From NCBI GenBank assembly GCA_964356915.1, contig CAYHJF010000002.1:148522-212521 (forward strand): DNA of 64,000 nucleotides, given 5' to 3'. The notes under the pieces are model-generated. The model was not told where the DNA came from and did no database searches. It was given only the letters and a program-made list of their open reading frames with translations. Positions 1,167 through 63,420 of this stretch are shown here, piece after piece (the first letter of the stretch is position 1; every line of letters begins with the position of its first letter). This DNA comes from an uncultured Candidatus Saccharibacteria bacterium. GTDB taxonomy: Bacteria; Patescibacteriota; Minisyncoccia; Ryanbacterales; GWA2-47-10b. The position numbers and the translations under genes were made by a program.

Positions 1167-2701
1167 AGTTTCTTTTCCTCAAATAACGGCAATATAAAAA
1201 GAACGACAGCAAAGACCATCGCTACAAGGGCCAGAATCATATAATAATACTGCTCCAAGGAAATGCCTTGATGAACAAAATAATGATTAAACAAAAAACT
1301 GCTACTTTCTTGTTTCTGAAAATATTCAAAAGCACGAGCAATACCATAGCGCGCACCTAATGGATCGGCCTCAATCTTGGGAGGCACCGCATTTGTCGTA
1401 AGCGCGCCCATGAGGCTTACCGCGGAAGAATATATTATAAACAAGAAAGCAGTCATGCGTCCCGTCCACTTCCACGATGCATGAGAAAGAAAATCAGCAA
1501 TAAAGAGACTTAATACGGCCATTGTTGGTATCAGATAACGCGGACCAAATGCCCAGCCCCCCCACGGATCACCCCAACTAGAATACAAAAAAACGTTGAT
1601 ACCGATGAGCGAGTACAAAATACCAAGCTCCAAGTTAACCCGTCCAGCACTCATGAATAACCCAAGAATGCCCAGCAAAAAAATAGGAGCGTACAAAAAT
1701 AGACCTCTATCACGCGAAAACATCAATACATTAAACCCGCGCGCGAGTTTTTCCTCTGCAAAAAACCGTACGATATTACTTTTACGTGTTGCCAGCTCTT
1801 TAAGTTTTTCTTTGCCCCCATCATCCTGAATAATGTTCTCTTCGATAATAGATTTGTATCCAACCAAGCTACCGCTTAATCTTTTCCAACTACCAAATTC
1901 TTGATGGTTATAATAACCATGTAACGCAATCAACATAATAAATATTACTGATGTAAGAAAAAAAGTTGGGCGCGCATTAATTTTCAATCCTTCATCATTC
2001 AATCTATATTTAACCGAAACAATAAAGAAATAAATAATAACGGGAAAGATTAAGAGTGCATTCGGATAGTCAATCGCAATACCGTACCCAAAACAGAACC
2101 AGACATAGACTCCCCAAAACCATGACCACCGACCGGCATCCTTGTATCGCCATACGGCATAAAAAGATGACAGAATAAAGAATGTAGTCACATGGTGTTG
2201 GTACAATGTAATAGCATAGCTCCATGAAGAAGCCGCAAACCCAAAAATTAATGCCGCGAGCAGCGCCAACGCAACAGACAAGTTAAGAATCTTACGCCCA
2301 ATTAGAAAAAGAAAAACTAAATTTAAAATCGCAAATAAAGAAATAACGGAGAAAGCACCGACTTGAGCAACCTGATAGCTCTTCCCAATCAAGTAGAATG
2401 GAAGCGCTAACAGTGAGATACCGGGCGCGAAATATACATAGAATCTACCTTCATAATATCCAACGTCTGGATAAGCCGCATCCGCAAGCTCTTTTGAAAG
2501 AGCAAAGGATTTATTCTCTGCTAATGACACGGTGAGCAGATAACGCCCACGCTCAGGCGAAAGCTCAAGAGGCTTTGTTGTCTGGTCAAGATTATTTTTT
2601 ACTTCACTCGATGCAAAATTGCCATATACGCCGCGCAAAGTAAGTCCGTAAAGCACGGCACCAAAGAAAATCAGAAATAATATCGCAAATACATTTTTCA
2701 T
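1163..2701 (-). CDS. GT-C-fold integral membrane glycosyltransferase (ArnT/PMT-like)
   Basis: 512 aa with more than 10 predicted TM helices, acidic/aromatic loop 'DVGYYEGRFY' near the N-terminus, and a C-terminal soluble domain. Its stop overlaps the start of the next gene. Confidence 0.5.
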   Translation of the reverse strand: MKNVFAILFLIFFGAVLYGLTLRGVYGNFASSEVKNNLDQTTKPLELSPERGRYLLTVSLAENKSFALSKELADAAYPDVGYYEGRFYVYFAPGISLLALPFYLIGKSYQVAQVGAFSVISLFAILNLVFLFLIGRKILNLSVALALLAALIFGFAASSWSYAITLYQHHVTTFFILSSFYAVWRYKDAGRWSWFWGVYVWFCFGYGIAIDYPNALLIFPVIIYFFIVSVKYRLNDEGLKINARPTFFLTSVIFIMLIALHGYYNHQEFGSWKRLSGSLVGYKSIIEENIIQDDGGKEKLKELATRKSNIVRFFAEEKLARGFNVLMFSRDRGLFLYAPIFLLGILGLFMSAGRVNLELGILYSLIGINVFLYSSWGDPWGGWAFGPRYLIPTMAVLSLFIADFLSHASWKWTGRMTAFLFIIYSSAVSLMGALTTNAVPPKIEADPLGARYGIARAFEYFQKQESSSFLFNHYFVHQGISLEQYYYMILALVAMVFAVVLFILPLFEEKKL

Positions 2702-3897
2702 ATAATCCCCCTCTTTGAAAGCACCTTATACAAACGATTTTTATTGTAGGCGCCATCAAAATACGTAACTCCATCTCGAATGCGCCGGAAAAAACTGATC
2801 TTTTCTGACTTTAAAAGTACGTCTCGCAAAACTTGCTGTAATTCCTCGTCTTGATTTTTGCGCTCCAGTTCGCAAAGGCTTGCCTCAAGGTGCACGCGCA
2901 CACCTGGAGAGCGTGCATCAATTTTACAAACTGCGCGCAAATCTAATGGTCGTGTAAAGGCTCCTGATTTATCTAAAACATTGGCAACTCGCAATTCAAT
3001 CATCGTACGTAAACATTTTTCACATGCACCACAATTATATTTACCGGCTACATTCTTATAGCATACCCTTAAATGCTCTAAAGCGTTATCGGAATTAGCA
3101 ATATATCGAGAAACCTTCTGAACACGGTTCGCTTCATTGCCATCATGAATAATTTTTGTAGCCTCTGTAGACCACAAAGGATCTAGCGCTGGGTGCGAAC
3201 CCCAAGGGAAAAGCTGCTCATAAGAATCAGTTGATGGTATATAAACCCTCTTTAACCCCGCTCTCAACATCAGTGCAACACCGCAGAGAGCTCCGCCATG
3301 TCCCCAATCCCAACTAATCATTTCATCCAAAATCTCTCGAATATTAGTACGCAAAAATATAACCTCTACATCCTCTGCCTCCGCAATTTTTCGAATACGT
3401 GCGGAAGTTTCCTCAAAAAGAGCTTTATTTAATAGATCAATATCAAAACCGTGCACAAAAATTAAATGAGTTATTTTTTCACCACCCTCTTTCTTATTTT
3501 TTAAAAAAGTATAAAAAGAATCCACCCCACCTGAGAAAAATGCACCTATGCACGTTGGCGAATAAGCACTGTCGTTGAAACTTCCTCTTGTATAGATCCG
3601 ACTATTAGAGTCGCGCCTGAATCCCCAAGAATTGTAAACTTCCTCGATCGATCTTAGGTTCTGATAATTTCTAGCATTAACTTGACCATCAATAATTAAG
3701 TCAAATCCTTTATTAGCAAACGCTGGGAAAAAACAAGCAAGAAAAATACTGGCATCAGATGCAAGGAAGGATTCGTATTTTTCATCAACTTCAAAATAGA
3801 GCTCTTTTTTCTTCCCAAAACCAAGTAGATCCGCTGAAAGCGCTACTGTCCCGTGTTTATTTGTTGTAATAATATTTTGTATTGTTATTGAATTCAT
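2698..3897 (-). CDS. PP-loop ATP pyrophosphatase superfamily protein, possibly an N-acetyl-sugar amidotransferase-like enzyme
   Basis: SGGVDS PP-loop motif ('FFSGGVDSFYTF'), C-terminal CGACEKC cysteine cluster, embedded in a glycosyltransferase operon. Confidence 0.55.
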   Translation of the reverse strand: MNSITIQNIITTNKHGTVALSADLLGFGKKKELYFEVDEKYESFLASDASIFLACFFPAFANKGFDLIIDGQVNARNYQNLRSIEEVYNSWGFRRDSNSRIYTRGSFNDSAYSPTCIGAFFSGGVDSFYTFLKNKKEGGEKITHLIFVHGFDIDLLNKALFEETSARIRKIAEAEDVEVIFLRTNIREILDEMISWDWGHGGALCGVALMLRAGLKRVYIPSTDSYEQLFPWGSHPALDPLWSTEATKIIHDGNEANRVQKVSRYIANSDNALEHLRVCYKNVAGKYNCGACEKCLRTMIELRVANVLDKSGAFTRPLDLRAVCKIDARSPGVRVHLEASLCELERKNQDEELQQVLRDVLLKSEKISFFRRIRDGVTYFDGAYNKNRLYKVLSKRGII

Positions 3898-5114
3898 ATG
3901 TTAGAAAATACTTTTTCCCAACGATTACGTTCGGCGATCTGGATTTCTGCCACCCTTTTATTTAGCGACTCCGATAGCATTGCCCGCGCTTCGTATGCTT
4001 TCTGTAGCAAATTATACAAAGCATCAACGGTTACCGCTTCACACGAAATAACATAGTCTTGCATCCCCAAATCCTCCCCGATACCTTCTGTTTTATATTC
4101 ATAGCTAATAGCAACAAATGGTATGCCCTGCGTTGCGGCAATAATATTCGAATGCATCCGCATCCCAAGCAATAATTCTAAACGACCGTAAGTATCTATG
4201 GCATCATCGACATCTTTCACAAAATGAACTGGCAATAAATTCACACCTAACTTTTCCAACTTACCCATAACACGTCTCACTACCCGTTCGTCGTCCTCTT
4301 CAATAAGTGTTGTGCTTACTTGCACAATAGGCTGGACATGCATGCCCCTCACCTTACAGAAAGTAGCCAAAGCTCTAACCACCTCCTCTTCAAAAAAAGA
4401 CTGTCGCTGCTTAGGCAACCAATTTCTCAATGTTAAACCAAGAACAAGATTTTCCCTTTTTGTAAGTAGTCGCTTCGACCCTAAGAGCGCGGAATCAAAA
4501 CCACGCCTTATATTAGAAAGTCTGTAACTTTCGAGCTTATGGTAAGAATAACCCTCACGCAAAATAACAAGGTTTAAATAAGACAAGGCTATAGCTGAAA
4601 TACGCTCTTGCCATTTATAATAAAATGGACCAAAGCTTATTGGCATTACAATAACTTTTTTACAAAGCAACCTAGCAGTGTAGATCATCAAAAGTTGCAT
4701 CATTAGATTTAGAGTCTGCTTGACCCCACTTTTTGACCGTAAATAACCTCCTCCGGGGAAAACTATTAGATCTGCCTGGGCATAATCATCAAGTAAATCT
4801 GCTAAATATGACTTCTTTGGTAAGCTAAAACTAAGTTGATAAAAAAATAGACGAACTAAAAATTCAAAGAACCTTAAAAAACGAACTCCTGCTTTAGGAT
4901 TATCAAAAACAACCCAAGAATATATTGTATGTTTAAGTGAACTAGCAAAAGAACTATCAGTATATAAATTTGGATCACTACTATGAACTACTGGCCGTAC
5001 GGATGGAAAAATATTTCTCAGCAGCTCTATTTCACTCAACAAAATAGCCTGATCTCCAGGATTTCTTGGACCAGTTGCGTGAGGAATCAAAATTTTTTTT
5101 ATTTCGTAGCTCAT
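3894..5114 (-). CDS. Polysaccharide pyruvyl transferase family protein (CsaB/WcaK-like)
   Basis: N-terminal 'GPRNPGDQAIL' (GxxNxGD) and C-terminal 'MRMHSNIIAATQGIPFVAISYEYK' motifs typical of the PS_pyruv_trans family. Confidence 0.7.
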   Translation of the reverse strand: MSYEIKKILIPHATGPRNPGDQAILLSEIELLRNIFPSVRPVVHSSDPNLYTDSSFASSLKHTIYSWVVFDNPKAGVRFLRFFEFLVRLFFYQLSFSLPKKSYLADLLDDYAQADLIVFPGGGYLRSKSGVKQTLNLMMQLLMIYTARLLCKKVIVMPISFGPFYYKWQERISAIALSYLNLVILREGYSYHKLESYRLSNIRRGFDSALLGSKRLLTKRENLVLGLTLRNWLPKQRQSFFEEEVVRALATFCKVRGMHVQPIVQVSTTLIEEDDERVVRRVMGKLEKLGVNLLPVHFVKDVDDAIDTYGRLELLLGMRMHSNIIAATQGIPFVAISYEYKTEGIGEDLGMQDYVISCEAVTVDALYNLLQKAYEARAMLSESLNKRVAEIQIAERNRWEKVFSNI

Positions 5115-6926: not shown

Positions 6927-9327
6927 ACAAAATCTCCAGACACTCGGCTGATTTTTCATCCCACCCAAAATGACTTGCCCATAATACTGCTTCTCGTTCC
7001 ATGCCAGTACGGACTTCGCGACCATGGATAAGTTCGGAAATTTTTTCTGCAAACGCCTTGGCATCACCGTGCGGAACCAAATAACCAGTATGCGGGTTCC
7101 GTACTGAATCACGTAAACCCGGAACATCTGCGGCAACGACCGCTACTCCACATGCATTTGCTTCTATTGTTGTAATACCCCACCCCTCCATAAATGAGGG
7201 ATTTACAAAAACCCATGCGCGCTGTAACAAGCGCGTCTTTTCAGAGTCAGAAATACCTCCAGCGAATCGTACACTCTGACTAATTCCAAGTGTGCGCGTT
7301 AAATCTTTCAGTACCATCTCCTCCTCTCCTCGACCTGCAATCACCAATTCGGCTTCAGGAAATTTATGGACTACATACTTAAACGCGCGAAGAAGTACAT
7401 CGACAGATTTATATTTCTTGAGCCGGCCAACGTACACGACTAAGGGATGATCGCTCTTCTCACCCGGCCTCAACCGCGCGAGATCAACTCCAGGATGTAC
7501 CACTGAAATACGCGCCCCTCGAATACCCAGAAATCGCTCCATTCCTTTCTTTGTAGACTCAGAAATAGTGATAAATTCAACTCCTCGATATGCCCACGGC
7601 ATTACGGTGTTTTCAAGAAAGGCCGCAAAAAGCGCAAGAACTCTTGGTAACGAATGATAAAAAACATCTTGATGAACATGGAATAAAAGCGAATAAACTT
7701 TTTCCTTTGCGTATAGCGGAGCAAAAAATGGCACGCCGTTCTGACAGTCAACAATAATATCAAATTGCCCTCGAAAACGAAGTAGATAATAGAAAAATGC
7801 CCACACATACACAAAGTAAAACCCACCGCGCCGAATAATTCTTACCCCATCTATTTCTTCTTCGCGCTTTGATTTACCATCATTACCACAAAAAATTGTA
7901 ACGCTATTACCTGTAGCAACCCAACGCTTCGCAAATTCATGAATATGAATTTCAGCGCCTCCTGCAAATGCATGTTTGGTATCACGCCAATTAAAAATCA
8001 AAATACGCTTACCTGACTCTAGCGCCGGACGCTCACTCCGAAATGGTCGCGCGATATCAACAAGATCAATCAGCGCCCGTAAAATAAACTTTCCATTACG
8101 GAGTAATATGTGTAGCACCGTCATTACACCAAGCGTCAACACGCTTGAAAAAAGCATAACGTTTGAAATTGCAACGATAGAACTGTGCGATCGCATGATC
8201 CCAAGCGCCATCACGCACGCCATAACAAGCATTGTAAATGGAAACAGATAATGTTTGCGTGCAAGATGATACGCATTAAAGGCGCTGGCAAGCGTAAGAC
8301 ATGTGATCGCAAGCGCATACGTAGGCAAATACGGTAAAATGCCAAGCGCTCGCTCGCCGAGCAGTATGGGCACAATTTTACTGCCAAAAATACCAAGGGC
8401 GCTATACGCTCCAAACGTTAATACGCATGCCCCGGCAAAAATACGATAAAAGATTTTATTTGGATTCTTATGTGCGCCCTCAGCATTTGCAATAAACGTA
8501 ATCATGAATCCATTGAGCAACGAACCAAAAAAATAAATCATTTTCCCAACAAGAGACAATAAAGCATACTGACCCGCGAGTTCTGGATTGAGATAATGTT
8601 TGGCAAGCACTAAATCAAATGTTAAATATGCAATACCAGAAAATCCTGAAATAAACGAAGCTATGTAGAAAGTTTTTGGAAATACGAGTGGCTTTTCAAT
8701 ATCCTCGTCTTCTAACCGACGAGCCGCGCGCGATGCAAACCATTGCGCAACAAAAAGCCCCGCGATAAGTGAAGTAGGAAAAGACAATACAACCCACTCT
8801 CTCAATCCTCTCTCGACTAATATATATACAACGCCCAGTTTAACGATCGCTTCGACAAAAATCGCAAACCCAACTGCGGCAAAAAAGAACTGCCCTTGCA
8901 AGAACCCCTTACTCGCTGATGTGATAATAATAACCGGTAACACAAGCGCGAAAAGGCCAAGCACCCATGTATGCTCAATATGAAAAAACGCTCCTAACGC
9001 AGGAACAACGGCAAACCAAACAAGCGCCACCCCAAGCGATACAAAAAATGCTCTTCGCTGAATACGGCGAAAAAAAACAACGCTTGCCGATGCATGCCCC
9101 TCTCCAACTTCATATGAGGTTACATAATTAACAGTCGCCCCAAGCGCACCCGCCGCAATACCAATGAGCAATAATAATGTTCCAAAGAGCGTCAGTACAC
9201 CAAACTCTTCTGGAGCAAGTCTCCTACCGAGATATGCGTTAAAAACAAAATTCAAAAAATTTGCACCCATAAGTGCGCCCGTAAGAAATGCTCCTCCAGA
9301 AATTAGGCGCACAAATTGCTTTTTCAT
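6916..9327 (-). CDS. Fusion protein: N-terminal Wzx-like polysaccharide flippase (MOP superfamily, ~430 aa, multi-TM) joined to a C-terminal GT4 glycosyltransferase
   Basis: The N-terminus resembles polysaccharide-biosynthesis/flippase proteins with ~12 TM helices. The C-terminus carries the GT4 EX7E region 'PSFMEGWGITTIEANACGVAVVAADVPG'. The two halves form a single 803-aa ORF. Confidence 0.7.
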   Translation of the reverse strand: MKKQFVRLISGGAFLTGALMGANFLNFVFNAYLGRRLAPEEFGVLTLFGTLLLLIGIAAGALGATVNYVTSYEVGEGHASASVVFFRRIQRRAFFVSLGVALVWFAVVPALGAFFHIEHTWVLGLFALVLPVIIITSASKGFLQGQFFFAAVGFAIFVEAIVKLGVVYILVERGLREWVVLSFPTSLIAGLFVAQWFASRAARRLEDEDIEKPLVFPKTFYIASFISGFSGIAYLTFDLVLAKHYLNPELAGQYALLSLVGKMIYFFGSLLNGFMITFIANAEGAHKNPNKIFYRIFAGACVLTFGAYSALGIFGSKIVPILLGERALGILPYLPTYALAITCLTLASAFNAYHLARKHYLFPFTMLVMACVMALGIMRSHSSIVAISNVMLFSSVLTLGVMTVLHILLRNGKFILRALIDLVDIARPFRSERPALESGKRILIFNWRDTKHAFAGGAEIHIHEFAKRWVATGNSVTIFCGNDGKSKREEEIDGVRIIRRGGFYFVYVWAFFYYLLRFRGQFDIIVDCQNGVPFFAPLYAKEKVYSLLFHVHQDVFYHSLPRVLALFAAFLENTVMPWAYRGVEFITISESTKKGMERFLGIRGARISVVHPGVDLARLRPGEKSDHPLVVYVGRLKKYKSVDVLLRAFKYVVHKFPEAELVIAGRGEEEMVLKDLTRTLGISQSVRFAGGISDSEKTRLLQRAWVFVNPSFMEGWGITTIEANACGVAVVAADVPGLRDSVRNPHTGYLVPHGDAKAFAEKISELIHGREVRTGMEREAVLWASHFGWDEKSAECLEILYGK

Positions 9328-53428: not shown

Positions 53429-53971
53429 TTATGGGGCGGTATAAAAAATCCACTGTCTCTTTCCTGCCTGCCACTCAAAAAACCAATCATCTTCGTGCGC
53501 ATCCACACCGGAAGTCACAAAGAAATCTTTCATTGCCGACTGATAGCTCTTACAGTCATCCGAAAAAATAAAATGAGCAAAAATTCTAAGAAAATATTCA
53601 AGACGCACGTAATGAACTGATCGTGGAAGTACTTTCGTTCGCCATGCGCGAGATTGCGTCCGCCGCACAGTTAACTCCGGAGTCTGCGTAACACGCGCGA
53701 GATGTTGCAAACTTATTCCAAGTCCCTTACGAAGAAAGGTAAACTCCTCTCCAGTAAATGGGGTAACCTTTTGAGAAACGGCTCGCGACATGACTCTCAA
53801 AAGCGGACCAAGACTAGGAATTGTTGGCGCCTCCTCAGAACACCGAGGACACCGAGATACCGTAATCCCTACAAACCGAGCTTTCGACAACCCCATAAGC
53901 AGAGATCGATACGCTGTTTGACACGTTGTTTTGCGCGATATAAGCCATACCTGACAACGATCACACTTCAT
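53429..53971 (-). CDS. Zinc-ribbon/HTH-like hypothetical protein
   Basis: N-terminal CxxC...CxxC pair; a bidirectional terminator follows its 3' end. Confidence 0.35.
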   Translation of the reverse strand: MKCDRCQVWLISRKTTCQTAYRSLLMGLSKARFVGITVSRCPRCSEEAPTIPSLGPLLRVMSRAVSQKVTPFTGEEFTFLRKGLGISLQHLARVTQTPELTVRRTQSRAWRTKVLPRSVHYVRLEYFLRIFAHFIFSDDCKSYQSAMKDFFVTSGVDAHEDDWFFEWQAGKRQWIFYTAP

Positions 53972-54024
53972 CGCTATTCTCCCTGTACGACTTCCGCCGC
54001 CCTGTATGATGCGAAACCCTTTCA

Positions 54025-54414
54025 TTAATATTCAGCGTATCCTTGGCTTGATTCCGCCATCCATACATGACACTCAACGCGAGCGACTCGAAATATTTGT
54101 GGAACGGCATCACGTACAAAGATCTCTCCCAACGCTCTCCCAATCGCATCGGCAAGCTTATGAAAAGGAGCATCCATTCTTCTACCCTCCACTTCAAGAA
54201 ACCAACGAACCTCCGCAATCACTTCGCGTTGACTGCGATTCGGCCCAAGCTCATAATCTTCTTTGTGAAAAAATATACTCACTTGAGAAGGCTCGGAAAG
54301 CCCAAGCTCCACAACATCAAGAATATCTCTGACCAATCGTGGCCGCACAACATCACGTAGATATGGGTTTATACCTTCAGCATGTGGTACACCATAGACA
54401 TGAAGAATTGGCAT
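54025..54414 (-). CDS. Hypothetical protein; possible tautomerase-superfamily member (N-terminal Met-Pro)
   Basis: Starts 'MPILHVYG'; weak. Confidence 0.25.
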   Translation of the reverse strand: MPILHVYGVPHAEGINPYLRDVVRPRLVRDILDVVELGLSEPSQVSIFFHKEDYELGPNRSQREVIAEVRWFLEVEGRRMDAPFHKLADAIGRALGEIFVRDAVPQIFRVARVECHVWMAESSQGYAEY

Positions 54415-54527
54415 GAGTGCCTCCTTAAAAAGCTATACCATGATATTTCTTTGCTGCATAGGCTATAGTTCAAAAAATAAAAAACCCCGCAAAAAAAGCA
54501 GGGCTCATAGATAAAGAACAAAAAAGA

Positions 54528-56132
54528 TCATTGTGGAGGGGAAAGTCCGAGTTCACGTTCAATTTGCGCACCCCATTCATCCGGCTTCGCAGGATTTACC
54601 CACGCGAGTCTACCGGTCGCCGCGTCAGTTGCTGCAATCTCCGGCAATGCACCCGCAATGAATCGTCGCTCTCCTTCTGAGGTATCGGAGACTGGCTTCT
54701 CAAGTGTAATCACGGTCGTAAGCCAGCATAGTCGATGCTTGCCTCCGATCATACGAACAAGTGGACGATGCTCGACAGGTCGATGTCGATTCCAGTCATA
54801 CATCTTCTTCGACCCAATCACCTGTGACGCGATCGCGCTCACACCAAGCAAACTCTCGCCACGACGATGATGCGAATATATGTAGACAACATTTGCCATA
54901 TCTCCCGGAACCCAAAGACTGGTATTCAACCCTTGCTTATCCGTATCAAACGGCTCAAGAGCAAAATACTGATAAAACATACCTCCCTGCCCTGGTATAT
55001 CAGCATGAATTGCGAATGGCTGAGGATTAACGTCATCCGCTAAATCTGCGATACGAACATCGCCCCGATGACTCCACGGCGCTGGTGCGAAGAATCCATC
55101 TTGGAAACGAAATGAATTCGCCATGTATCGTGTGACTGTATAAGGCGCAATATTTTGCCCCGCGAGAAACGGATAATTACGAATATGCTCTGGCGCAATC
55201 CATGTCCCCGCTCCAAAAATCGTAAGCCGCAAATCTGCGATCACTGATTCTTGTTCTTGGCGGATGATCTGTACACCCCCAAACTCCGGCTGCGGAAATA
55301 GCAATCCCGTCCACCGAATAAGCGTGACAACTTGAACCCACTCATTAGAATCATCTCGTAGATAAATCGTACCTGCGGGCTCATAATTCAAATACCGCAA
55401 TGGACCAAATGTCTTCACGGTAGCTGTTGCATTATTACGACCAAAGAGTAAATGCTCTCCTGTCATAAAGTTTACACGCATATGATGCTTTGAGTTTGAG
55501 AAATCCGGCGTCGGCTCCGTCCCCGGCACATCGAAAAGTTGATGCACGCCTTCACGGATTCTTGGCAACCAATACACTGGTTCCACGCCAAGAGTCCAAT
55601 GTCGCTCATCACCAATCCGCACAAATCGCGGAATCTGCGGCTGGAGATTCTCACTCATCGCCTGATGCGCATTTGAATGAACGGCATTGAGCGGCTGAAT
55701 ACGCTCGAACCCCGTAAGTGGTAGCTCTGTGAGCTCAATTTTCTGGAGCGTATAGTATCGCTTATACAATGCAAGATATTCATGCAAATCATCTCCCCAT
55801 TGGATCACTCCAAATGAAAGTGGGATCGCAAGCGCAGTAGCGATCAATCGACGACGATATGATCCTCGAAACAATGCGTGCCACAAACCATATGTGTACG
55901 GAATACCAAGAATCACAAGAAAGATACGCGTACGTACCATCAATATGTATGGATGTACAATTGCTCGCGCGAGAAATAAAATCGCAAGAACAACGAAGCA
56001 CAGCACCAGAAACCATACCCGATGTCTTTTGAGAAAGTCTTTCAGGCGCTCTTGTGCGTGAACGAACGTCCAGTAGATACGCCCTCTATTATCTTTTTTA
56101 CTAGAATCGCTTATCGCCGTCATTCGGCTCAC
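54528..56132 (-). CDS. Membrane-anchored hypothetical protein with a large extracytoplasmic domain
   Basis: Two N-terminal TM helices followed by a ~450-aa soluble domain; a terminator follows its 3' end. Confidence 0.4.
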   Translation of the reverse strand: MSRMTAISDSSKKDNRGRIYWTFVHAQERLKDFLKRHRVWFLVLCFVVLAILFLARAIVHPYILMVRTRIFLVILGIPYTYGLWHALFRGSYRRRLIATALAIPLSFGVIQWGDDLHEYLALYKRYYTLQKIELTELPLTGFERIQPLNAVHSNAHQAMSENLQPQIPRFVRIGDERHWTLGVEPVYWLPRIREGVHQLFDVPGTEPTPDFSNSKHHMRVNFMTGEHLLFGRNNATATVKTFGPLRYLNYEPAGTIYLRDDSNEWVQVVTLIRWTGLLFPQPEFGGVQIIRQEQESVIADLRLTIFGAGTWIAPEHIRNYPFLAGQNIAPYTVTRYMANSFRFQDGFFAPAPWSHRGDVRIADLADDVNPQPFAIHADIPGQGGMFYQYFALEPFDTDKQGLNTSLWVPGDMANVVYIYSHHRRGESLLGVSAIASQVIGSKKMYDWNRHRPVEHRPLVRMIGGKHRLCWLTTVITLEKPVSDTSEGERRFIAGALPEIAATDAATGRLAWVNPAKPDEWGAQIERELGLSPPQ

Positions 56133-56733
56133 CCTTTACCGCCGTAACAGTTGGCTCCTCAGAACCATGTCGTACAAAGCGTCCGACGAGTTCAGTAGGA
56201 GATGGTACAGGATCGGCAGGTGCGGAAACGACAACATCACTTGGAGGCACGGGCACGGATACCGCAGCCTTTTCGCTCACACGACGCGCGCGACGCCAAC
56301 GAGCCAAAAAGGCCCCTGCTCGTTCTCTGATATCGATTTCACCAGACTCAATACGGTCAACCGCATCGAGAAGCGGCTGCTTACGACTCCATAGCCGAGC
56401 AAACCACGGTCCTGCATAAAAACCAACGATCATGAAGATACCTTCAAACGGTATGCTAAAGATCAGTCTCAATATACTTGCGGCGCCAACCCAAAATCCG
56501 AGCGCGCTCTGCGCAAGCACGATCATCAGCGCAACCGTAAAGCGCGAACTAAATCGCTGACCATGCACAAACCCGAGATTAATATTATCTCCGAGTTTTT
56601 CTCCATGTGTAAAGTCATACCATACACGATAAGCCGTTCGACCATAGTGATAGTCAACCATATACACAACAATGCCTTCGACGATACAACCAACCACAAA
56701 AGCAAAAAGACCATAGTCGATAGAAGATGCCAT
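56101..56733 (-). CDS. Hypothetical membrane protein
   Basis: Four TM helices; overlaps the downstream gene by 32 nt. Confidence 0.35.
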   Translation of the reverse strand: MASSIDYGLFAFVVGCIVEGIVVYMVDYHYGRTAYRVWYDFTHGEKLGDNINLGFVHGQRFSSRFTVALMIVLAQSALGFWVGAASILRLIFSIPFEGIFMIVGFYAGPWFARLWSRKQPLLDAVDRIESGEIDIRERAGAFLARWRRARRVSEKAAVSVPVPPSDVVVSAPADPVPSPTELVGRFVRHGSEEPTVTAVKGEPNDGDKRF

Positions 56734-56893
56734 GGCACTCCCTCTATTTTCGAAGTACGCTCCACATAACACATGGAGCATCTGAACGCATTCTTACAAT
56801 AAATAATACCTTTTGTCAATGATTCCTTCGAAAAAAGAGAAAGAAAAAAGCCGAGCGTAATGCTCGGCCTTGAGTTATTCCTAATGAACTTTA

Positions 56894-58144
56894 TTACTGA
56901 CTCATTCGCGGCACATAGTGCTTACGAATAACGTCGACGGCCCATGCGCGCTTCGCGTCGGGCCATGTCTGATACTCAGCAAAGAACCTATTTCTATCGG
57001 AGAGATAAAATCGATACATATCGATTAGCTGAAGTCTGCACAAGAGCATCCATACAGCCTCTTGATCAGTCTCCGACAGATCATCGTGAGGACGGAGAAG
57101 GATCGCGGAGAGTTGTGGATCAAGTTTTTCGATTTTCGGACGTCCACCATTACGCAGATCGAGTGAAAATCGTTCAAGCATATGATAGACCTCGGGCAAC
57201 TCATCTGCATGACGAGCGGCGAATGCTCGTCGCTGCGCCATCTTGAGTTCTCCAAAGTTAATCTCGGGAGAAATTCGTCCGAGTAAGTCTGCCAAAATGC
57301 TATCGCATTTTTCGCGCAGCACCTCTGGATGCTTGCGATACCATCGAAGATTGATCTCAACAAGCCCTTCTTTCAACACATGTTCCGCGAGATTCGAATC
57401 ATCGAGTGCATATTCTTCGCACCCACCAAGTTTCCGAAGCTGGGAAGCATCTACCGCAATAAGAAGAGCTTTATCAACAGCACGCGATCGAAGAATGAAT
57501 ACTCCTCCAAACGCATTTGTGTAGTAAGACGACACTGGGACTTGAAACGGCGGAATATCAATACGCCGCATCCGAAGATCGCCCCACGTACGCCCGCTCT
57601 CTACGAGCTGTGCTCGTAGAGACGCATCAAACCATCCTGTCGGCTCTTCCTGAAAGCGTTCGATAAGCCCATGCTGCTCGTGCGCCGCGTCAAAAAGTCC
57701 TCCGGCTACTGATCGCAGCACGACATACCGCACGCGCAGTAAGTCATAAGGACTCTCATATCGTGTCAGCTCTTGATCAATATCAAGCCCCAGAAATGTC
57801 GTTGCTGTAATATCGGTAATCGCATTATGATGACGCTCGAAATATGCTCCCAAGAGTTGACGTTCGTAAGAAGAGAATGGCATCCAAATCGGTTTACTTC
57901 GCTGACTGGGTGTTAGGATGACGCCCATAGGGTTAGTGGGTCCTGCGCACAAGTAGGACATATTTCCCTTTTCGCGCGCAATCTGCCAACTCCATCCAAT
58001 ACCATCAACCTCAAACGATGTAAGTGTGGTTGGCTCAATACCAAGCTGCCTCAGAGCATCATTGTACCGACCAACCATCTTCGGTGTAGAGATTGATACG
58101 AGACCCTTACCAAAGAGTCCTGCTTGTACCAAGCGTTGCATCAA
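56894..58144 (-). CDS. Hypothetical protein (416 aa), within the AAA-ATPase operon
   Basis: Overlaps the stop of the AAA ATPase gene by 4 nt; no family recognised. Confidence 0.4.
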   Translation of the reverse strand: MMQRLVQAGLFGKGLVSISTPKMVGRYNDALRQLGIEPTTLTSFEVDGIGWSWQIAREKGNMSYLCAGPTNPMGVILTPSQRSKPIWMPFSSYERQLLGAYFERHHNAITDITATTFLGLDIDQELTRYESPYDLLRVRYVVLRSVAGGLFDAAHEQHGLIERFQEEPTGWFDASLRAQLVESGRTWGDLRMRRIDIPPFQVPVSSYYTNAFGGVFILRSRAVDKALLIAVDASQLRKLGGCEEYALDDSNLAEHVLKEGLVEINLRWYRKHPEVLREKCDSILADLLGRISPEINFGELKMAQRRAFAARHADELPEVYHMLERFSLDLRNGGRPKIEKLDPQLSAILLRPHDDLSETDQEAVWMLLCRLQLIDMYRFYLSDRNRFFAEYQTWPDAKRAWAVDVIRKHYVPRMSQ

Positions 58145-60099
58145 CGCGCCTTTTCGCCGACTAGCTGATGAGCCGCTACTGCGATACGCAAACGCTCTGC
58201 TTCTCGTTCGACTTCGCGACGATACCCCGCGTCCTGGATGCGAACCATACTATCGAGATATCGGAATGTCTCTTGTAAGCGGATTTCCGCAAACGAAAGT
58301 CCCCTCATGTTTACCTGCATAAGCTCTCGAATCATTGCAACTTTTCGGGCGTACTCCCGTCTATAGAAAGTTTCGGGAGAGTCGAGCCAATCAGCCGGAA
58401 AGTCGAAGTCCATAACTCGGGCATCTACTGCCTTCTGAATATTGCGAACATCACGAGAACTAAACTCGGGGTATCGCGCGAGAACACCAGCGTAAAACTC
58501 TGCGAAAAACATCTGTTCATTTGGCTGATGTTTCGTCAGCGCTGTCTCGTACACTTCCCGAATCGATGCTTCTTTCGGCTCCGTATAGGTAGCCGAAATT
58601 TGCGAAAGTGACGTGAGTTCTCCCTGCGCTGAAAGATACGCATACCCAGATGGGTCAAGCATACCAACAAATGCAGGATCAAGTGCATGATATCGTCGCC
58701 ACCAAAGATAATCTTGATCAAGAAAATCTGTTGCAGTAGTTGCACCATTAATCATAGTACGGCTTTGAATTCTTGAGAGCACCGCCTTATCGATCTGATC
58801 GGGAATATTTGTACACACATGAATGACTGCGTTGCCATACTGCACGGCAGATGCACCTTCAGTGCGCCGCAAAAATACTCCAATCACCTCTCGCACACCA
58901 GCGGATACTCCTTGCCGAGTACGTTCTTCAAGAGTATTTTCCGCATCATCGATAGCGCCATACACGATACTCATTGGATCACTAAACGCACGCATATATG
59001 CGTCCATGTGTTCCGCTGACCCACCTTGAAACGTTGAAACAATTGTTTCGGGTAAAGGATGAAATTTGAATCTCAATCCAAGCCACTGACACCGATCAGC
59101 GAGCGCAGTCGCAATTGCTGCAATCTGCATCGACTTACCGGTTCCAGGCTTTCCATGTCCGAGCGTAAGAAATACGAATCCCCCAAGCTCAAACATAGGG
59201 TTTTTCTTGACTGTCGGATCATAGCAAGCTAATCGGTCAATAAGACGCCGGCCTGCGTGCTTTGCATCGCGATTGCCAACAATCTCATTAAACTCGACCC
59301 TACGAAATTCGACACTCCCACCTGATACATGTTCAACATCAAATCCACTGACAGTAAACTCACTGCCTTCGAGTTTATAATGTCGGCATGTAAAGGCATC
59401 GCTATGCTTAAATGAATCAAGCCGAAGCTTAAGTTCCTCAAGCACAGCACGGAAATATACAAGCGTCATCTTAAGGAATTCTTTTTCAGTCATGACCGAT
59501 CCAGAATCCTCAAGATACGCGCCGTAGTAATACATAACGCACGAGAGTGCATCAACACGATTTTTGAATGGAAGCTCTGGGATCCCCTGAAAATTCACAG
59601 GGATAGCGCCAATATCATCCTCCATTGATTCAATCATCCAAACAACGTAATACGCTGCTACGAAAATTGAAATCGCTGCATACGTTGCTGTCTTTTCATG
59701 AAATTCGGTACTCTGCACCTCGGGCAGTTTGCCTCGCTGATTCTGCTCGCGCAAAAGCGCGAGTCCAGAAGCCCGATCGTAAAGCTCTGACAGATGTCCT
59801 CCCATCTGGAGACCCTTTCGCAATGCAAGTAATGCGCGATTGATCTGCTCAGGAAAAATCACTGGGTCATTAGCAATTCGTGCTGCTGACTTCATGATTG
59901 AAACTGGCTTTTCGATGGTAGGTGCCGCAGTTGATTCACGCCACGCTGGACGATCACTACCACTCGCACCTCCACCTTTCGCCAAACTCGCGACATCCTT
60001 GATAGGTCGCCATTTGACTGACTGCAGTAATACATTTGCTGAACTACGATATGGTGCGATATCTGTCTCCCTAATCGGTAGCAGTTCTTTAGACGCCAT
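58141..60099 (-). CDS. Classic-clade AAA ATPase (652 aa) with a ~300-aa N-terminal domain of unknown function
   Basis: Walker A 'GHGKPGTGKS'; Walker B-like 'IVYGAIDDAE'; second region of homology 'VCTNIPDQIDKAVLSR', comparable to ATNRPD.ID.ALLR. Confidence 0.7.
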   Translation of the reverse strand: MASKELLPIRETDIAPYRSSANVLLQSVKWRPIKDVASLAKGGGASGSDRPAWRESTAAPTIEKPVSIMKSAARIANDPVIFPEQINRALLALRKGLQMGGHLSELYDRASGLALLREQNQRGKLPEVQSTEFHEKTATYAAISIFVAAYYVVWMIESMEDDIGAIPVNFQGIPELPFKNRVDALSCVMYYYGAYLEDSGSVMTEKEFLKMTLVYFRAVLEELKLRLDSFKHSDAFTCRHYKLEGSEFTVSGFDVEHVSGGSVEFRRVEFNEIVGNRDAKHAGRRLIDRLACYDPTVKKNPMFELGGFVFLTLGHGKPGTGKSMQIAAIATALADRCQWLGLRFKFHPLPETIVSTFQGGSAEHMDAYMRAFSDPMSIVYGAIDDAENTLEERTRQGVSAGVREVIGVFLRRTEGASAVQYGNAVIHVCTNIPDQIDKAVLSRIQSRTMINGATTATDFLDQDYLWWRRYHALDPAFVGMLDPSGYAYLSAQGELTSLSQISATYTEPKEASIREVYETALTKHQPNEQMFFAEFYAGVLARYPEFSSRDVRNIQKAVDARVMDFDFPADWLDSPETFYRREYARKVAMIRELMQVNMRGLSFAEIRLQETFRYLDSMVRIQDAGYRREVEREAERLRIAVAAHQLVGEKAR

Positions 60100-61240
60100 G
60101 TATCTCTACCCTCCCTCGGTCGTCGTAGGTGATCTTTCGGCAAGTGCCGAATATCGGCATTGCCTTAATCACAGCTGCGTCTACTTCTTGAAGCACGCTG
60201 TGAGGCATCAGAACATTGTGCGCGACGACCGTCGCACCACGCCTGAAGCACTCCTCATCCCTATGATTAATAGCAAATACTTCTCGAACCTTGCCACGCG
60301 GCGCAAGAATGCTTCGCGTAACTTGCTGGTCACGAGAAAATATCATTTCATCACGGACAAATAATACGAAGTCGTTCGGGTCTTGAGCGCCTCTCATAAG
60401 CTCGCGGATTACCCTCGTCTCTTCATCTTCTTCTCCGACAGGATACTCATCAAAGAGTAATCGTGAATAAAGAGGTCCCACTGCAAGACGCTTGAGCATT
60501 TTTGGATGGATCGGCTCGAGAGCATCATCAATACCCGCAAGCACAATCGCAACCTTTTCGGGCGCTCGAGAACCTTCAGCCCTCACTTTTGCGATGAACT
60601 GCAGGTAATTAGGACCCTGATCTTCAAGCGGTTGTTCCGTAAGATCCTGATGAAACACCATGACATGAATATGCGGAATACTTGTGGTGAAATCGAAGTT
60701 CCCCCACGAAAAAAAGTATTCGCGCGCGTTTGCGGTATCACCCTTCGGATGACGTATGAGCGCCCCCGGAGTAAACGGCAAAAGCACGCTATCTTCTTTC
60801 AGCATTTCGAGATAACTTCTTTCAGCCAACTGCCACAATACTTCCGATCGCTCACGACCCTCTTTCAAAAGGCCGTCGAGTACTTCACGCACCAAAATGG
60901 CACGGGCTGGAAGTATTTTGAGACGTTCATCTCGTACACGAAGATCATCGGCAATTCCATAGAATTCCTGTGCATTTGGGAATCCGGAATTGATCATATC
61001 AACCCAGAGAGATCGCCCGATATTTGCTGAACGCGAAACATATTTTATCCGCAAAAGCTGAACCGTAAAGAGCAGCTTTTCAATAAACGTTCGGATCACA
61101 TCTACTTCATGACTTTTACGAGTGTCTGCTGGATATGCTGCAAGCGCTCGCCTGCACATCTCACCAAGCATATTGAAGTATCGCGCATACGCGTCCTCAC
61201 CACTCAACGTCCTGAAATCAAACCCTTCGCGCTCTACCAC
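60089..61240 (-). CDS. Hypothetical protein (383 aa), within the AAA-ATPase operon
   Basis: Overlaps the AAA gene start by 11 nt; no family recognised. Confidence 0.4.
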   Translation of the reverse strand: MVEREGFDFRTLSGEDAYARYFNMLGEMCRRALAAYPADTRKSHEVDVIRTFIEKLLFTVQLLRIKYVSRSANIGRSLWVDMINSGFPNAQEFYGIADDLRVRDERLKILPARAILVREVLDGLLKEGRERSEVLWQLAERSYLEMLKEDSVLLPFTPGALIRHPKGDTANAREYFFSWGNFDFTTSIPHIHVMVFHQDLTEQPLEDQGPNYLQFIAKVRAEGSRAPEKVAIVLAGIDDALEPIHPKMLKRLAVGPLYSRLLFDEYPVGEEDEETRVIRELMRGAQDPNDFVLFVRDEMIFSRDQQVTRSILAPRGKVREVFAINHRDEECFRRGATVVAHNVLMPHSVLQEVDAAVIKAMPIFGTCRKITYDDRGRVEIHGV

Positions 61241-61306
61241 ACAGCTCTCCTTTCGTGAACAAAAACGGGAGGTGACCCTGTTGGGCCCCTCCCGCGTGGG
61301 TTTGCA

Positions 61307-62704
61307 CTAGAACGAACGCGGCCTATCAGGGCGAGAATCTTCTCCGCCCGATGCACCGGTCTCTTCTCCCTCGAAACGAAAGAACGAACTATTTGTGGGA
61401 TCAATTCCATATTGAGCCTTGAACGCCGCAATCGCTTCACGTTCACGATGACGAATCTGTGCGACCGCCTCCGCCTGCGCTGCTGCGATTCCTGCGAGCT
61501 GGCGTATGATATCCGGATGTTTTTCGACGCGATCCATCCGAAGACGATCTGACAGAGCACCAGCACTTGCCATATACTCTGCGTTGCGTAAATCCACTTC
61601 AACACCAACCTCATCGAGCCGCCGAGCAATGTCCTGATCGGCCATACCCTTCTGCGCCTCGAGTCGGGAACGGAATGTAATTACCCGTGCCTCGGTATCA
61701 GACCGAAGCATCGTGATCCACATACGCATGTTATCGCGGAGCTTCATTTGAGTACGCTCATGGATGAGCATATCTTCCGCAAATCGCTCCTTTGACTGGA
61801 AGTAAATCAACGCCGTATTATGTTCACCTCGAACCTGCTCAACCTTGGCACGCAATGCTGCGATTGCCTCGGTTTGGCGAGCATGATCAGGGGTCCCATT
61901 TTCGAGACCACGGAGCTTTTCTTCTTCGGTCTGCAACTCCGCCTCAACCTCTGTGAGACCGCCTTGGAGTTTTTCGAGCGCCTGTGCGGCACGGCCCTTC
62001 TCTTCGAAGGTTCGTACGCGCGCAGCACCGACAACCTGCACTTGCGTATTGATCTCTTCGCGACGCGCTTCCATGATCTGCACGGTACGCTCAACACGAA
62101 GAGTGAACTCCTGCAAAGATGCTTCCATATCAGCCCCCTGAAGACGTGCTCGCATTTTGCGTTGTGCATCTTCAGTCGCCGTCTTAATCGCCCCTTTTGC
62201 AACTCTGATATTTTCTTCAGCAGCCGCTATTGCACGACCCTTGAAGAACGTCTTTTGCTTAGCCACTTCGAGCTCAGCTTCACCAGCCGTCTGATCAGCA
62301 GTTGCCTTATCAATAGGCGCCTGCTCATTGGTATTAAACTTACCAAGATTTGTATATTCGGCTCCCATTTGCTCGATAATCGTATTGAGACCAAAAACTG
62401 CCGCGGCGAGATCTTTCTCCTCCGTAGCAGCGTCTTGCTCAAGCGCTTCGAGCGTAGTCTCGAGTACACGAAGACGCGCATCTCGCACGCCCTTATCGCG
62501 GATTTTTACCGCTTCCTTGATTTGATCTTCTACACCTGCGATCTGACGTTCAAGCGCGTTTGCACTCCCCGTCCTATCACGAACTCGATCGATCGCCTGG
62601 TTCGTATTTCCCAAGAGATCCTGAAGAATTTGAGACGAATCAACGACGGCAGCACCCTGTTCGGGCATCGCTATCTCCTTGTTCGTTGCCAAGTTTTCAA
62701 GCAA
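61307..62704 (-). CDS. Long coiled-coil protein (465 aa), first gene of the AAA-ATPase operon
   Basis: Highly charged, heptad-rich E/K/R/A composition throughout. Confidence 0.4.
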   Translation of the reverse strand: MLENLATNKEIAMPEQGAAVVDSSQILQDLLGNTNQAIDRVRDRTGSANALERQIAGVEDQIKEAVKIRDKGVRDARLRVLETTLEALEQDAATEEKDLAAAVFGLNTIIEQMGAEYTNLGKFNTNEQAPIDKATADQTAGEAELEVAKQKTFFKGRAIAAAEENIRVAKGAIKTATEDAQRKMRARLQGADMEASLQEFTLRVERTVQIMEARREEINTQVQVVGAARVRTFEEKGRAAQALEKLQGGLTEVEAELQTEEEKLRGLENGTPDHARQTEAIAALRAKVEQVRGEHNTALIYFQSKERFAEDMLIHERTQMKLRDNMRMWITMLRSDTEARVITFRSRLEAQKGMADQDIARRLDEVGVEVDLRNAEYMASAGALSDRLRMDRVEKHPDIIRQLAGIAAAQAEAVAQIRHREREAIAAFKAQYGIDPTNSSFFRFEGEETGASGGEDSRPDRPRSF

Positions 62705-62772
62705 CGGTCTAGAAGAATTCTTACAACATTATAAGCAAAAAGTCAAGGTTATACACGCACCACCAAAACCCG

Positions 62773-63420
62773 CTATCCTCCTGCCTGCCAACGTAAAATC
62801 GCCTGTGCTGGGTAAACGAGCATAATGATATTAAGTGTAAGATTATCGCGGATAAAATAGGCCACGCCAACCTCCATAATGACGGTCAGCGCAATCGTCA
62901 GCCATACAGGCATCCGAGAAACAAGCCAAAAACCAAAAATCATTGCGAGCACATCAAACGTTGAATTAAGAATACTATCACCATAATACCCCCATGAAAT
63001 CGTCACCTCTCGATACCGATTAATGACCATTGGAGTATTTTCAAAAACTTCCCATGCTACTTCAAATGCTGTAGCAATCGCAAGACGTACCCTAATTGGT
63101 ATCCGACGAGCGAATAGCCACAAGAGCGCATAAAATCCAAATCCATGAATAACGTGAGAAAATGTATACCAATCAGAAATGTGCTGTGAATTTTCCGCGC
63201 TCGCGACGACTCCCTGCCATAATTTTATATATCCACATTGGCATATAACAACACGGCCCATTACAAATTCAAAAAACGCGCCCAATATAATAATAGAAAA
63301 AACGAGCACCGCATCTACGTACCACGCGGCAGATCGTCCACGCCAATACCCTAAGCGAATTGCCACTAACGCGCCCGTGATACCAAGTATAAAAAGAGGA
63401 GCACTATATCCATCAAGCAT
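62773..63420 (-). CDS. Hypothetical integral membrane protein (DUF2585-like?)
   Basis: Five or six TM helices; 'HISDWYTFSHVIHG' motif. Confidence 0.35.
   Translation of the reverse strand: MLDGYSAPLFILGITGALVAIRLGYWRGRSAAWYVDAVLVFSIIILGAFFEFVMGRVVICQCGYIKLWQGVVASAENSQHISDWYTFSHVIHGFGFYALLWLFARRIPIRVRLAIATAFEVAWEVFENTPMVINRYREVTISWGYYGDSILNSTFDVLAMIFGFWLVSRMPVWLTIALTVIMEVGVAYFIRDNLTLNIIMLVYPAQAILRWQAGG

Follow-up and report, generated by a model that had tools for sequence, protein, structure and literature searches.

A conserved gene cassette around a classic-clade AAA ATPase probably encodes an undescribed membrane-associated machine

Architecture of the cassette

The window analysed here is a 64,000-nt stretch of contig CAYHJF010000002.1 (positions 148,522 to 212,521 of the forward strand; assembly GCA_964356915.1) from an uncultured Candidatus Saccharibacteria bacterium. 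On its minus strand, at 56894-62704, lie four co-directional genes, here called A, B, C and D, which encode in this order a helical protein, a soluble protein, an AAA ATPase and a DUF6638 protein. The genes of two membrane proteins, E and F, come next, extending the unit ABCDEF to 54528-62704 (Table 1). An earlier note on this DNA, made from the letters and their open reading frames (ORFs), had described four co-directional genes with overlapping or near-abutting ends followed by two membrane proteins, and this layout is borne out: the ORFs of B and C share 11 nt, those of C and D share 4 nt, and a gap of 66 nt separates A from B. The conserved unit takes in E and F besides ABCD. Since its partner proteins are like nothing characterised, the cassette probably encodes an undescribed membrane-associated machine.

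Conservation and gene content

Relatives of C occur in 523 of 185,579 species genomes, as determined by a pattern scan with one genome per species. They are spread over several classes of Patescibacteria, Deinococcota (Trueperaceae), Desulfobacterota including Desulfonema magnum, Gammaproteobacteria, Verrucomicrobiota, Bdellovibrionota and many Bacteroidota, the last including cultured Polaribacter, Tenacibaculum, Aquimarina and Leptobacterium; a search with D adds Algibacter, Lacinutrix, Tamlana and Flavivirga. Gene content was counted in the 62 related loci with enough flanking sequence. The full set ABCDEF is present in 31 of them, ABCD-F in 19, ABCD only in five and other partial patterns in seven, with B found in nearly all related loci. 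Gene order and strand are the same in all 62, and A-B-C-D-(E)-F is the arrangement in 50, drawn from at least seven phyla. The absence of E from the ABCD-F loci is a detection limit, E being too divergent for tblastn; this reading follows from the finding of a 173-aa E-like gene in 20 of 21 Flavobacteriaceae loci. Such conservation, with full-length C homologues 46-56% identical and a gene order shared by dozens of genomes of different phyla, goes far beyond chance. The gene-neighbourhood conservation on which the earlier note had staked its proposal is strong. A database copy of C with 100% identity marks the window as part of a Patescibacteria metagenome-assembled genome.

Two kinds of variation bear on how the genes belong together. 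On one contig (L089) the order is permuted to F-E-D-A-B-C, and hhalign confirms the identity of both F (E-value 8e-38) and E (E-value 4.5e-20). In one branch the membrane partner itself is exchanged. In Rhizobiaceae, Sinorhizobium meliloti among them, and in two metagenomic contigs (L091 and L092), ABCD is accompanied by a DUF2333 membrane protein; the S. meliloti genes A'B'C'D' are recognised by hidden Markov models with E-values from 6e-23 to 1e-94, and the DUF2333 gene follows them. In another locus (L086, GCA_947501025.1), ABCD is followed by a protein with two transmembrane (TM) segments and a DUF1523 protein. That the gene set outlasts a rearrangement, and that one membrane partner can stand in for another, both speak for a single functional unit, a cytoplasmic ABCD core together with a membrane partner.

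In a neighbour-joining tree of C, built without support values, the Bacteroidota form one clade that matches taxonomy, the Patescibacteria copies are scattered among other phyla and Sinorhizobium sits on a very long branch. The tree suggests vertical inheritance within Bacteroidota, along with some old transfers between phyla. Cassette copies are also carried by ~0.9-Mb Vibrio megaplasmids, and no phage-borne copies were found. On a metagenome-assembled contig labelled Saccharospirillaceae (L044), the AAA gene nests in the Bacteroidota clade beside a Flavobacteriales sequence, and the contig would be either misbinned or the product of a recent transfer.

The AAA ATPase C

In C, Pfam recognises solely the AAA domain (PF00004; E-value 1e-10, 42.6 bits against a cut-off of 21.2). 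The two motifs cited in the earlier note, the Walker A sequence GHGKPGTGKS and the second region of homology (SRH) VCTNIPDQIDKAVLSR, are both present. The Walker A core GKPGTGKS is invariant across the homologue alignments, as expected of a classic-clade P-loop, and the SRH carries T430, the sensor-1 asparagine N431 and the arginines R443 and R447, all of which are invariant or nearly so, in keeping with the same clade. The pore loop, S-x-(F/Y)-Q-G, aligns to KWMG of Vps4, placing an aromatic residue in pore loop 1. These AAA motifs are kept even in the most distant copies. The Walker B motif departs from the hhhhDE pattern: it is invariantly IDD (D384, D385), with D385 aligned to the catalytic glutamate of Vps4. 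Aspartate holds this position in the Sinorhizobium and Vibrio copies as well, and E387, two residues further on, is invariant in the main branch only. Judged by its motifs, C appears to be equipped as a ring-forming, substrate-threading remodelling ATPase, because it combines Walker A, the aromatic pore-loop residue, the sensor-1 asparagine and two SRH arginines; its nearest solved relatives are substrate-threading AAAs.

The C profile, compared with PDB sequences, finds Vps4 (E-value 1.3e-3) and Pch2/TRIP13 (2.9e-3), then Rpt4, Cdc48, spastin and katanin, in matches that cover residues ~296-450 only. Placed by profile and motif, C is accordingly a classic-clade AAA that falls within none of these six families. 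Its N-domain (~265 aa) and C-terminal extension (~200 aa) are family-specific by Pfam, alignment and PDB profile, confirming the earlier description of a classic-clade AAA with a novel N-domain. An MIT-like fold, named in the earlier note as a candidate for this domain, was not detected in sequence comparison: Pfam gives no MIT match at E <= 0.1, and hhalign assigns a probability of 0.15% against the yeast Vps4 MIT domain, a reference sequence entered by hand. Pfam likewise gives no match to Vps4_C, and the NCBIfam CdvC model scores 17.5 bits against a cut-off of 650. A candidate TM helix in the N-domain (residues 138-156) was rejected, 78 of 79 homologues lying below the hydropathy threshold. 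The families of C and D are uniform in length and contain no domain fusions.

The helical protein A

A is an elongated all-helical bundle, most conserved at residues ~280-345. Its AlphaFold2 model, built from a 64-sequence alignment, has a predicted local distance difference test (pLDDT) score of 77 and consists of eight helices, the longest spanning 124 residues, with a C-terminal tail that is disordered after residue 420. Neither a hydrophobic segment nor a signal peptide is present. The pairing of A with C had been likened to ESCRT-III/Vps4 or PspA-type pairs, and homology of this kind finds no support on either side. Among the 36 members of the A family, Pfam gives no Snf7, PspA_IM30 or TelA match at E <= 0.1; hhalign returns probabilities of 0.5% against E. 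coli PspA and 0.35% against yeast Snf7 (both reference sequences entered by hand), and the A profile against all PDB sequences yields coiled-coil noise only, such as keratin and IFT20. A Foldseek comparison of the model with PDB finds nothing at E <= 1e-3 (best E-value 0.017, TM-score <= 0.32), and none of its top 50 entries, all of them generic proteins with long helices, is an ESCRT-III, PspA or Vipp1 chain; long helical models compare poorly, so that this negative is moderate, not absolute. The ESCRT-III fold, an alpha1-alpha2 hairpin core of ~200-260 aa, is not seen in the 453-aa protein. What stands of the earlier likening is a possible functional analogy.

The soluble proteins B and D

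B is a soluble protein of 383 aa with the invariant residues Y21, E45, D81, S85, D238, H347 and Q351. A, B, E and F have no match in Pfam, NCBIfam or PADLOC, and none of the six components passes a cut-off in the latter two. Scanning the A, B and F family alignments (32-38 sequences) member by member with Pfam reveals no shared family; the profiles of B and F, compared with all PDB sequences, also give no match. D, in contrast to the impression that no partner could be recognised, is a member of Pfam DUF6638 (PF20343), matched over residues 11-411 with an E-value of 4.4e-42 and 144.9 bits against a gathering cut-off of 27; the S. meliloti copy scores 256 bits. The impression holds in that no partner falls in a characterised family. 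The AlphaFold2 model of D is confident (pLDDT 91.4, predicted TM-score 0.88) and comprises an alpha/beta N-terminal domain and a helical C-terminal domain. Foldseek finds no neighbour at E <= 1e-3 for this model, either in PDB (best E-value 0.88, TM-score <= 0.14) or among the BFVD viral models, and the best match of the D profile to PDB sequences has an E-value of 0.48. Searched against 1.84 billion representatives, the DUF6638 profile retrieves 529 clusters, all of them stand-alone proteins of ~410-440 aa without fusions. Paralogy between B and D was considered and rejected (hhalign probability 0.15%).

The membrane proteins E and F

The topologies of E and F were derived from hydropathy and the positive-inside rule and are consistent across homologues. 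E is a small protein with three TM segments and an outside N-terminus, as indicated by hydropathy and the distribution of Lys and Arg in 26 homologues. Its cytoplasmic tail is disordered and of low complexity, ending in a conserved 12-residue motif. F has an inside N-terminus and three TM segments in 29 of 32 homologues, with a high-low-high-low pattern of Lys and Arg. The TM part is followed by a highly conserved extracytoplasmic domain of ~400 residues, rich in invariant Pro, Gly and Trp. Homology between F and DUF2333 is unsupported, with an hhalign probability of 1.5% that rests on a 10-residue match, YFGL(E/N)PF.

Predicted gene starts and transcription signals

Translation of A most likely starts at ATG 62668 rather than at TTG 62704, because an AAGGAG Shine-Dalgarno sequence lies 7 nt upstream and its database copy (P0121) has 453 aa. 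For E, the start is most likely ATG 56733, since E homologues begin at TM1. Four signals predicted by consensus scan, two promoter-like sites and two intrinsic-terminator-like hairpins, suggest two transcription units, ABCD and EF; the count of promoter-like sites in the region is not above shuffled expectation. The hairpin after D is consistent with the existence of ABCD without EF in some lineages.

Table 1. Positions of genes, domains, motifs and predicted signals in the window
Feature	Position	Strand	Length or residues	Remark
A, ORF	61307-62704	minus	465 aa	from TTG at 62704
A, likely start ATG 62668	61307-62668	minus	453 aa	
B, ORF	60089-61240	minus	383 aa	
C, ORF	58141-60099	minus	652 aa	
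D, ORF	56894-58144	minus	416 aa	
E, ORF	56101-56781	minus	226 aa	
E, likely start ATG 56733	56101-56733	minus		
F, ORF	54528-56132	minus	534 aa	
A, conserved motif YGIDPTxSSFF	61373-61411	minus		disordered C-terminal tail beyond
C, N-domain	59305-60099	minus	residues 1-265	
C, AAA module	58750-59304	minus	residues ~266-450	
C, C-terminal extension		minus	residues 451-652	
C, Walker A	59131-59154	minus		
C, pore loop STFQGGS	59017-59037	minus		
C, Walker B AIDDAEN	58936-58956	minus	residues 382-388	
C, sensor-1/SRH	58759-58818	minus		
E, tail motif SPTELVGRFVRHG	56164-56202	minus		family consensus DPxELxxRYTxR or DWRxGVxxFLxK
Promoter-like site 5' of A	62717-62746	minus		TTGACT-18-AAGAAT with TG; consensus scan, predicted
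Terminator-like hairpin directly 3' of D	56847-56871	minus		strong; 10-bp stem and T run; intrinsic type; consensus scan, predicted
Promoter-like site 5' of E	56790-56819	minus		TTGACA-18-AAGAAT with TG; consensus scan, predicted
Terminator-like hairpin 3' of F	54482-54506	minus		intrinsic type; predicted end of the module; consensus scan

Flanking genes and junction inserts

The cassette lies among housekeeping genes of the window, which encode Obg, an AI-2E transporter, a DedA/VTT protein, RsmE, an ECF sigma factor, pyruvate kinase and QueA. The gene immediately upstream (62773-63420, minus strand) encodes a DUF2585 membrane protein (Pfam, 2.3e-73). Neither this ORF nor the two on the downstream side (54025-54414 and 53429-54025) are kept beside the cassette elsewhere. 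In the flanks of 25 loci, 150 ORFs contain 160 Pfam families, none of them recurrent, and no integrase or transposase family is among the 25 most frequent; about five of the ORFs match generic PADLOC models.

In the Flavobacteriaceae loci (L053 and L062-L083), extra genes are inserted at the junctions between cassette genes, with inserts of at least 450 bp at C|D in 13 of 21 loci, at D|E in seven, at B|C in five and at A|B in two. The inserted genes are lineage-specific, and the six core genes are each present in 20-21 of the 21 loci. The C|D insert of 11 loci (L066, L067, L068, L070, L072, L074, L076, L078, L079, L082 and L083) encodes a NUDIX hydrolase of ~200 aa that resembles NudK/ADP-ribose pyrophosphatase, with matches to PDB entry 1viu (4e-38) and nudK (7e-38). 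A NUDIX hydrolase gene also adjoins the DUF2333 gene in a Pseudomonas fluorescens locus (PMC5256989). These inserts may indicate a link to nucleotide-sugar or envelope metabolism, or may be coincidence. At the B|C and D|E junctions of L066, L074, L076, L079 and L082 lie genes for four-helix bundles of 105-121 aa (PDB 2gsc, 5e-11), two apiece in L074 and L079, which look like small mobile genes; we take them to be of the '23S rRNA intervening sequence protein' (IVS) type. The A|B junction of two Polaribacter loci (L066 and L078) holds a putative MazF/PemK-like toxin gene, assigned by motif reading only, with a partner of ~80 aa. Single insertions comprise a DUF1963 protein gene (L073, 12027-12797) and a 278-aa ORF with a D12-class adenine methyltransferase gene (L024, 12087-14053).

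Three observations concern the loci with other membrane partners. In S. meliloti Ak57 (L084, CP090106.1), a gene with a DUF559 endonuclease domain and an ISRm16 transposase gene lie between C' and D' (7060-8805); the record is labelled 'plasmid pSymB', is 3.7 Mb long with tdk, fhs and trpE, and looks like a mislabelled chromosome. In L086, a divergent type VI secretion system (T6SS) cluster (TssF, gp25, VipB and VipA; 1-4128) lies directly upstream of the cassette, a single case that is probably coincidence. In S. meliloti 1021, SMc02729 is annotated as a "hypothetical transmembrane protein" and SMc02730 as "conserved hypothetical"; shmR is presumably SMc02726. A DNA fragment bound by ChvI, an envelope-stress regulator, in a published screen lies inside SMc02733 of the same strain (PMC3687685). 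SMc02733 is presumed to be part of the cassette from the adjacency of locus tags, and the lead is a weak one.

Proposed mechanism and alternative explanations

The working model, tentatively advanced and rather doubtful as a whole, is an AAA-driven remodelling machine in which the ABCD core is docked at a membrane complex of E and F. C would use ATP to remodel or disassemble an assembly made of A, with B and D serving as dedicated adaptors or co-substrates. The ATPase would engage disordered tails or short motifs, such as the tails of A and E, and the reaction would be sited at the E/F complex or, in other hosts, at DUF2333 or DUF1523 proteins. ATP hydrolysis in the cytoplasm would thereby be coupled to an envelope-associated process, be it maintenance, remodelling or control of the external domain of F. 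Support for the model comes from the co-occurrence of the genes, the permuted order of L089 and the alternative membrane partners; from the conserved AAA motifs, the substrate-threading relatives of C and the soluble and membrane assignments with their topology; and from the E tail motif, the helical model of A with its disordered tail, the overlapping stop and start codons of B/C and C/D, and flanks that are housekeeping and non-recurrent.

Several points weigh against this model. The substrate assigned to C is a guess. The Walker-B DD may imply slow hydrolysis or a switch-like, not processive, role. In Trueperaceae, Desulfonema and the Vibrio megaplasmids, ABCD occurs without an adjacent membrane gene, and the membrane link may therefore be optional. 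Chiefly, the remodelling model leaves the Walker-B variant and the genomes with ABCD alone unexplained.

A different use of the same parts would be protein export, membrane extraction or quality control, in which E/F or DUF2333 would supply a channel or platform and C would thread a client protein into it or out of it. A might itself be that client. Its long helical bundle faintly recalls alpha-pore-forming and translocon proteins through matches to HBL, SipB and SctB (Pfam) and to AhlC, MakA, YaxA and PaxB (Foldseek); these matches are weak and non-significant (Pfam E >= 0.0028; Foldseek E >= 0.12, TM-score <= 0.32), and A has neither a hydrophobic segment nor a signal peptide. The aromatic pore loop of a classic AAA, a membrane partner that is almost always adjacent and the large external domain of F would suit an export device, yet no outer-membrane component is found in diderm hosts. 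Variable small genes at the Flavobacteriaceae junctions recall some secretion loci, but the genes themselves are of selfish or housekeeping kinds (IVS-type, putative MazF-like, adenine methyltransferase and NudK-like NUDIX) rather than effector and immunity pairs. We regard an export or extraction device as unlikely. An anti-phage or other conflict system is less probable still; it might, for example, be an abortive-infection module whose AAA detects or remodels a protein of the invader and whose membrane proteins serve as effectors. The patchy distribution of C, the carriage on megaplasmids, and Patescibacteria copies that are polyphyletic in the unsupported tree and suggest horizontal transfer, would agree with such a system, as would the methyltransferase and putative toxin-antitoxin genes at the junctions of a few loci. 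The match of C to IetA (E-value 0.0062, 14 bits) is nevertheless generic AAA similarity, no component passes any model of PADLOC-DB v2, and the components carry no effector domain such as a nuclease, protease or NTase. The flanks offer no defence-island context, given the few generic defence-domain matches and the lack of a recurrent family in the 25 loci and the neighbouring Obg, QueA, pyruvate kinase and RsmE genes in the window; phage copies are absent. Unlike strain-variable defence genes, the cassette is a stable possession of many genera of Flavobacteriaceae and its tree agrees with taxonomy, and the suggestion of a defence module made in the earlier note is not upheld.

The explanation to which we give the least credence, as very improbable, is a true and highly diverged ESCRT-III/Vps4 (Cdv) or PspA/Vipp1 homologue, in which A would be an ESCRT-III-like polymer. 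Vps4 is the top solved relative of the AAA module, and the CdvC model gives a weak match, but Pch2, Rpt4 and spastin score nearly as well against C, which has neither MIT nor Vps4_C and stays far below the CdvC cut-off. The helical A has a tail that might stand in for an MIT-interacting motif, and other bacterial Vps4-like contexts are reported in the phage shock protein (PSP) literature (PMC11237479); against this, A is about twice the length of ESCRT-III, and the Pfam, hhalign and Foldseek comparisons given above are all negative for Snf7 or ESCRT-III and for PspA. Neither outcome that would have spoken against a new system, partners from known housekeeping families or a gene order conserved nowhere, was found.

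Significance

Classic-clade AAA ATPases are rare in bacteria, comprising FtsH and a few others, and to our knowledge every characterised member there defines a major cellular process. The cassette adds a new family of this clade, tightly conserved with five uncharacterised partners, one of which (D) has a confident fold without a solved neighbour, and it is kept even in the genome-reduced Patescibacteria. No paper mentioning DUF6638 or PF20343 was found in the literature searched, and the comparative surveys of PSP and ESCRT systems describe other bacterial AAA contexts, not this cassette. Carriers such as Sinorhizobium meliloti and cultured Polaribacter, Tenacibaculum, Algibacter and Lacinutrix are tractable, and the function of the cassette, plausibly envelope-related, is therefore open to genetics and biochemistry. 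Such work would provide the first functional context for DUF6638 and DUF2333.

Comparison with known systems

One close parallel in overall design is Vps4/CdvC with ESCRT-III (CdvB). In both, a classic-clade AAA of the single-ring type, which has SRH arginines and an aromatic residue in its pore loop, is encoded beside a helical protein that has a flexible C-terminal tail, and both are associated with membranes. C differs from Vps4/CdvC in lacking MIT and Vps4_C, in its unrelated ~265-aa N-domain and ~200-aa C-terminal extension, and in a Walker B of DD instead of DE. A, with 453 aa, shows no Snf7 or PspA signal in sequence or fold. Nor does ESCRT have counterparts of B, D, E and F, four more partners that are obligatory in the cassette. 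PspA/Vipp1 systems with an associated AAA+ (PMC11237479) resemble the cassette in combining a bacterial helical scaffold, an ATPase, membrane proteins and a link to the envelope, whereas the domains PspA_IM30, PspB/C, Toastrack and LiaIF are all missing from the cassette. In the Vps4-like bacterial context of that paper, the ATPase is paired with a protein of TPR repeats and six TM segments and not with the proteins of the cassette.

Among the solved relatives of the AAA module, Pch2/TRIP13 comes second to Vps4 and is matched over a slightly longer stretch. It too is a classic AAA, one that uses an adaptor to remodel its dedicated partner protein. In the cassette, D gives no HORMA-like signal, its confident model being without a PDB neighbour, and there is no CD-NTase/CBASS gene. 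FtsH, Msp1/ATAD1 and Bcs1 are classic-clade AAAs that act at the membrane on membrane or translocating proteins. C itself has no TM segment and no protease domain, and any contact with the membrane would run through separate proteins (E/F, DUF2333 or DUF1523).

In conclusion, we rate the cassette as assignable to no known kind on the strength of its sequences and of fold comparison by Foldseek with PDB and BFVD. In logic it would at most resemble Vps4/ESCRT-III, NSF/SNAREs and ClpV/T6SS sheath, and its parts are not homologous to theirs. The cassette may represent an undescribed class of AAA-powered, membrane-coupled machine, a view to which we assign somewhat short of an even chance: a Walker-B DD AAA, the helical bundle A, B and D, which have no detectable relatives, and interchangeable membrane modules (E/F, DUF2333 or DUF1523), which the machine would signal to or be recruited by, would together constitute an independent ESCRT-like invention that extends from Patescibacteria to Bacteroidota and Proteobacteria.

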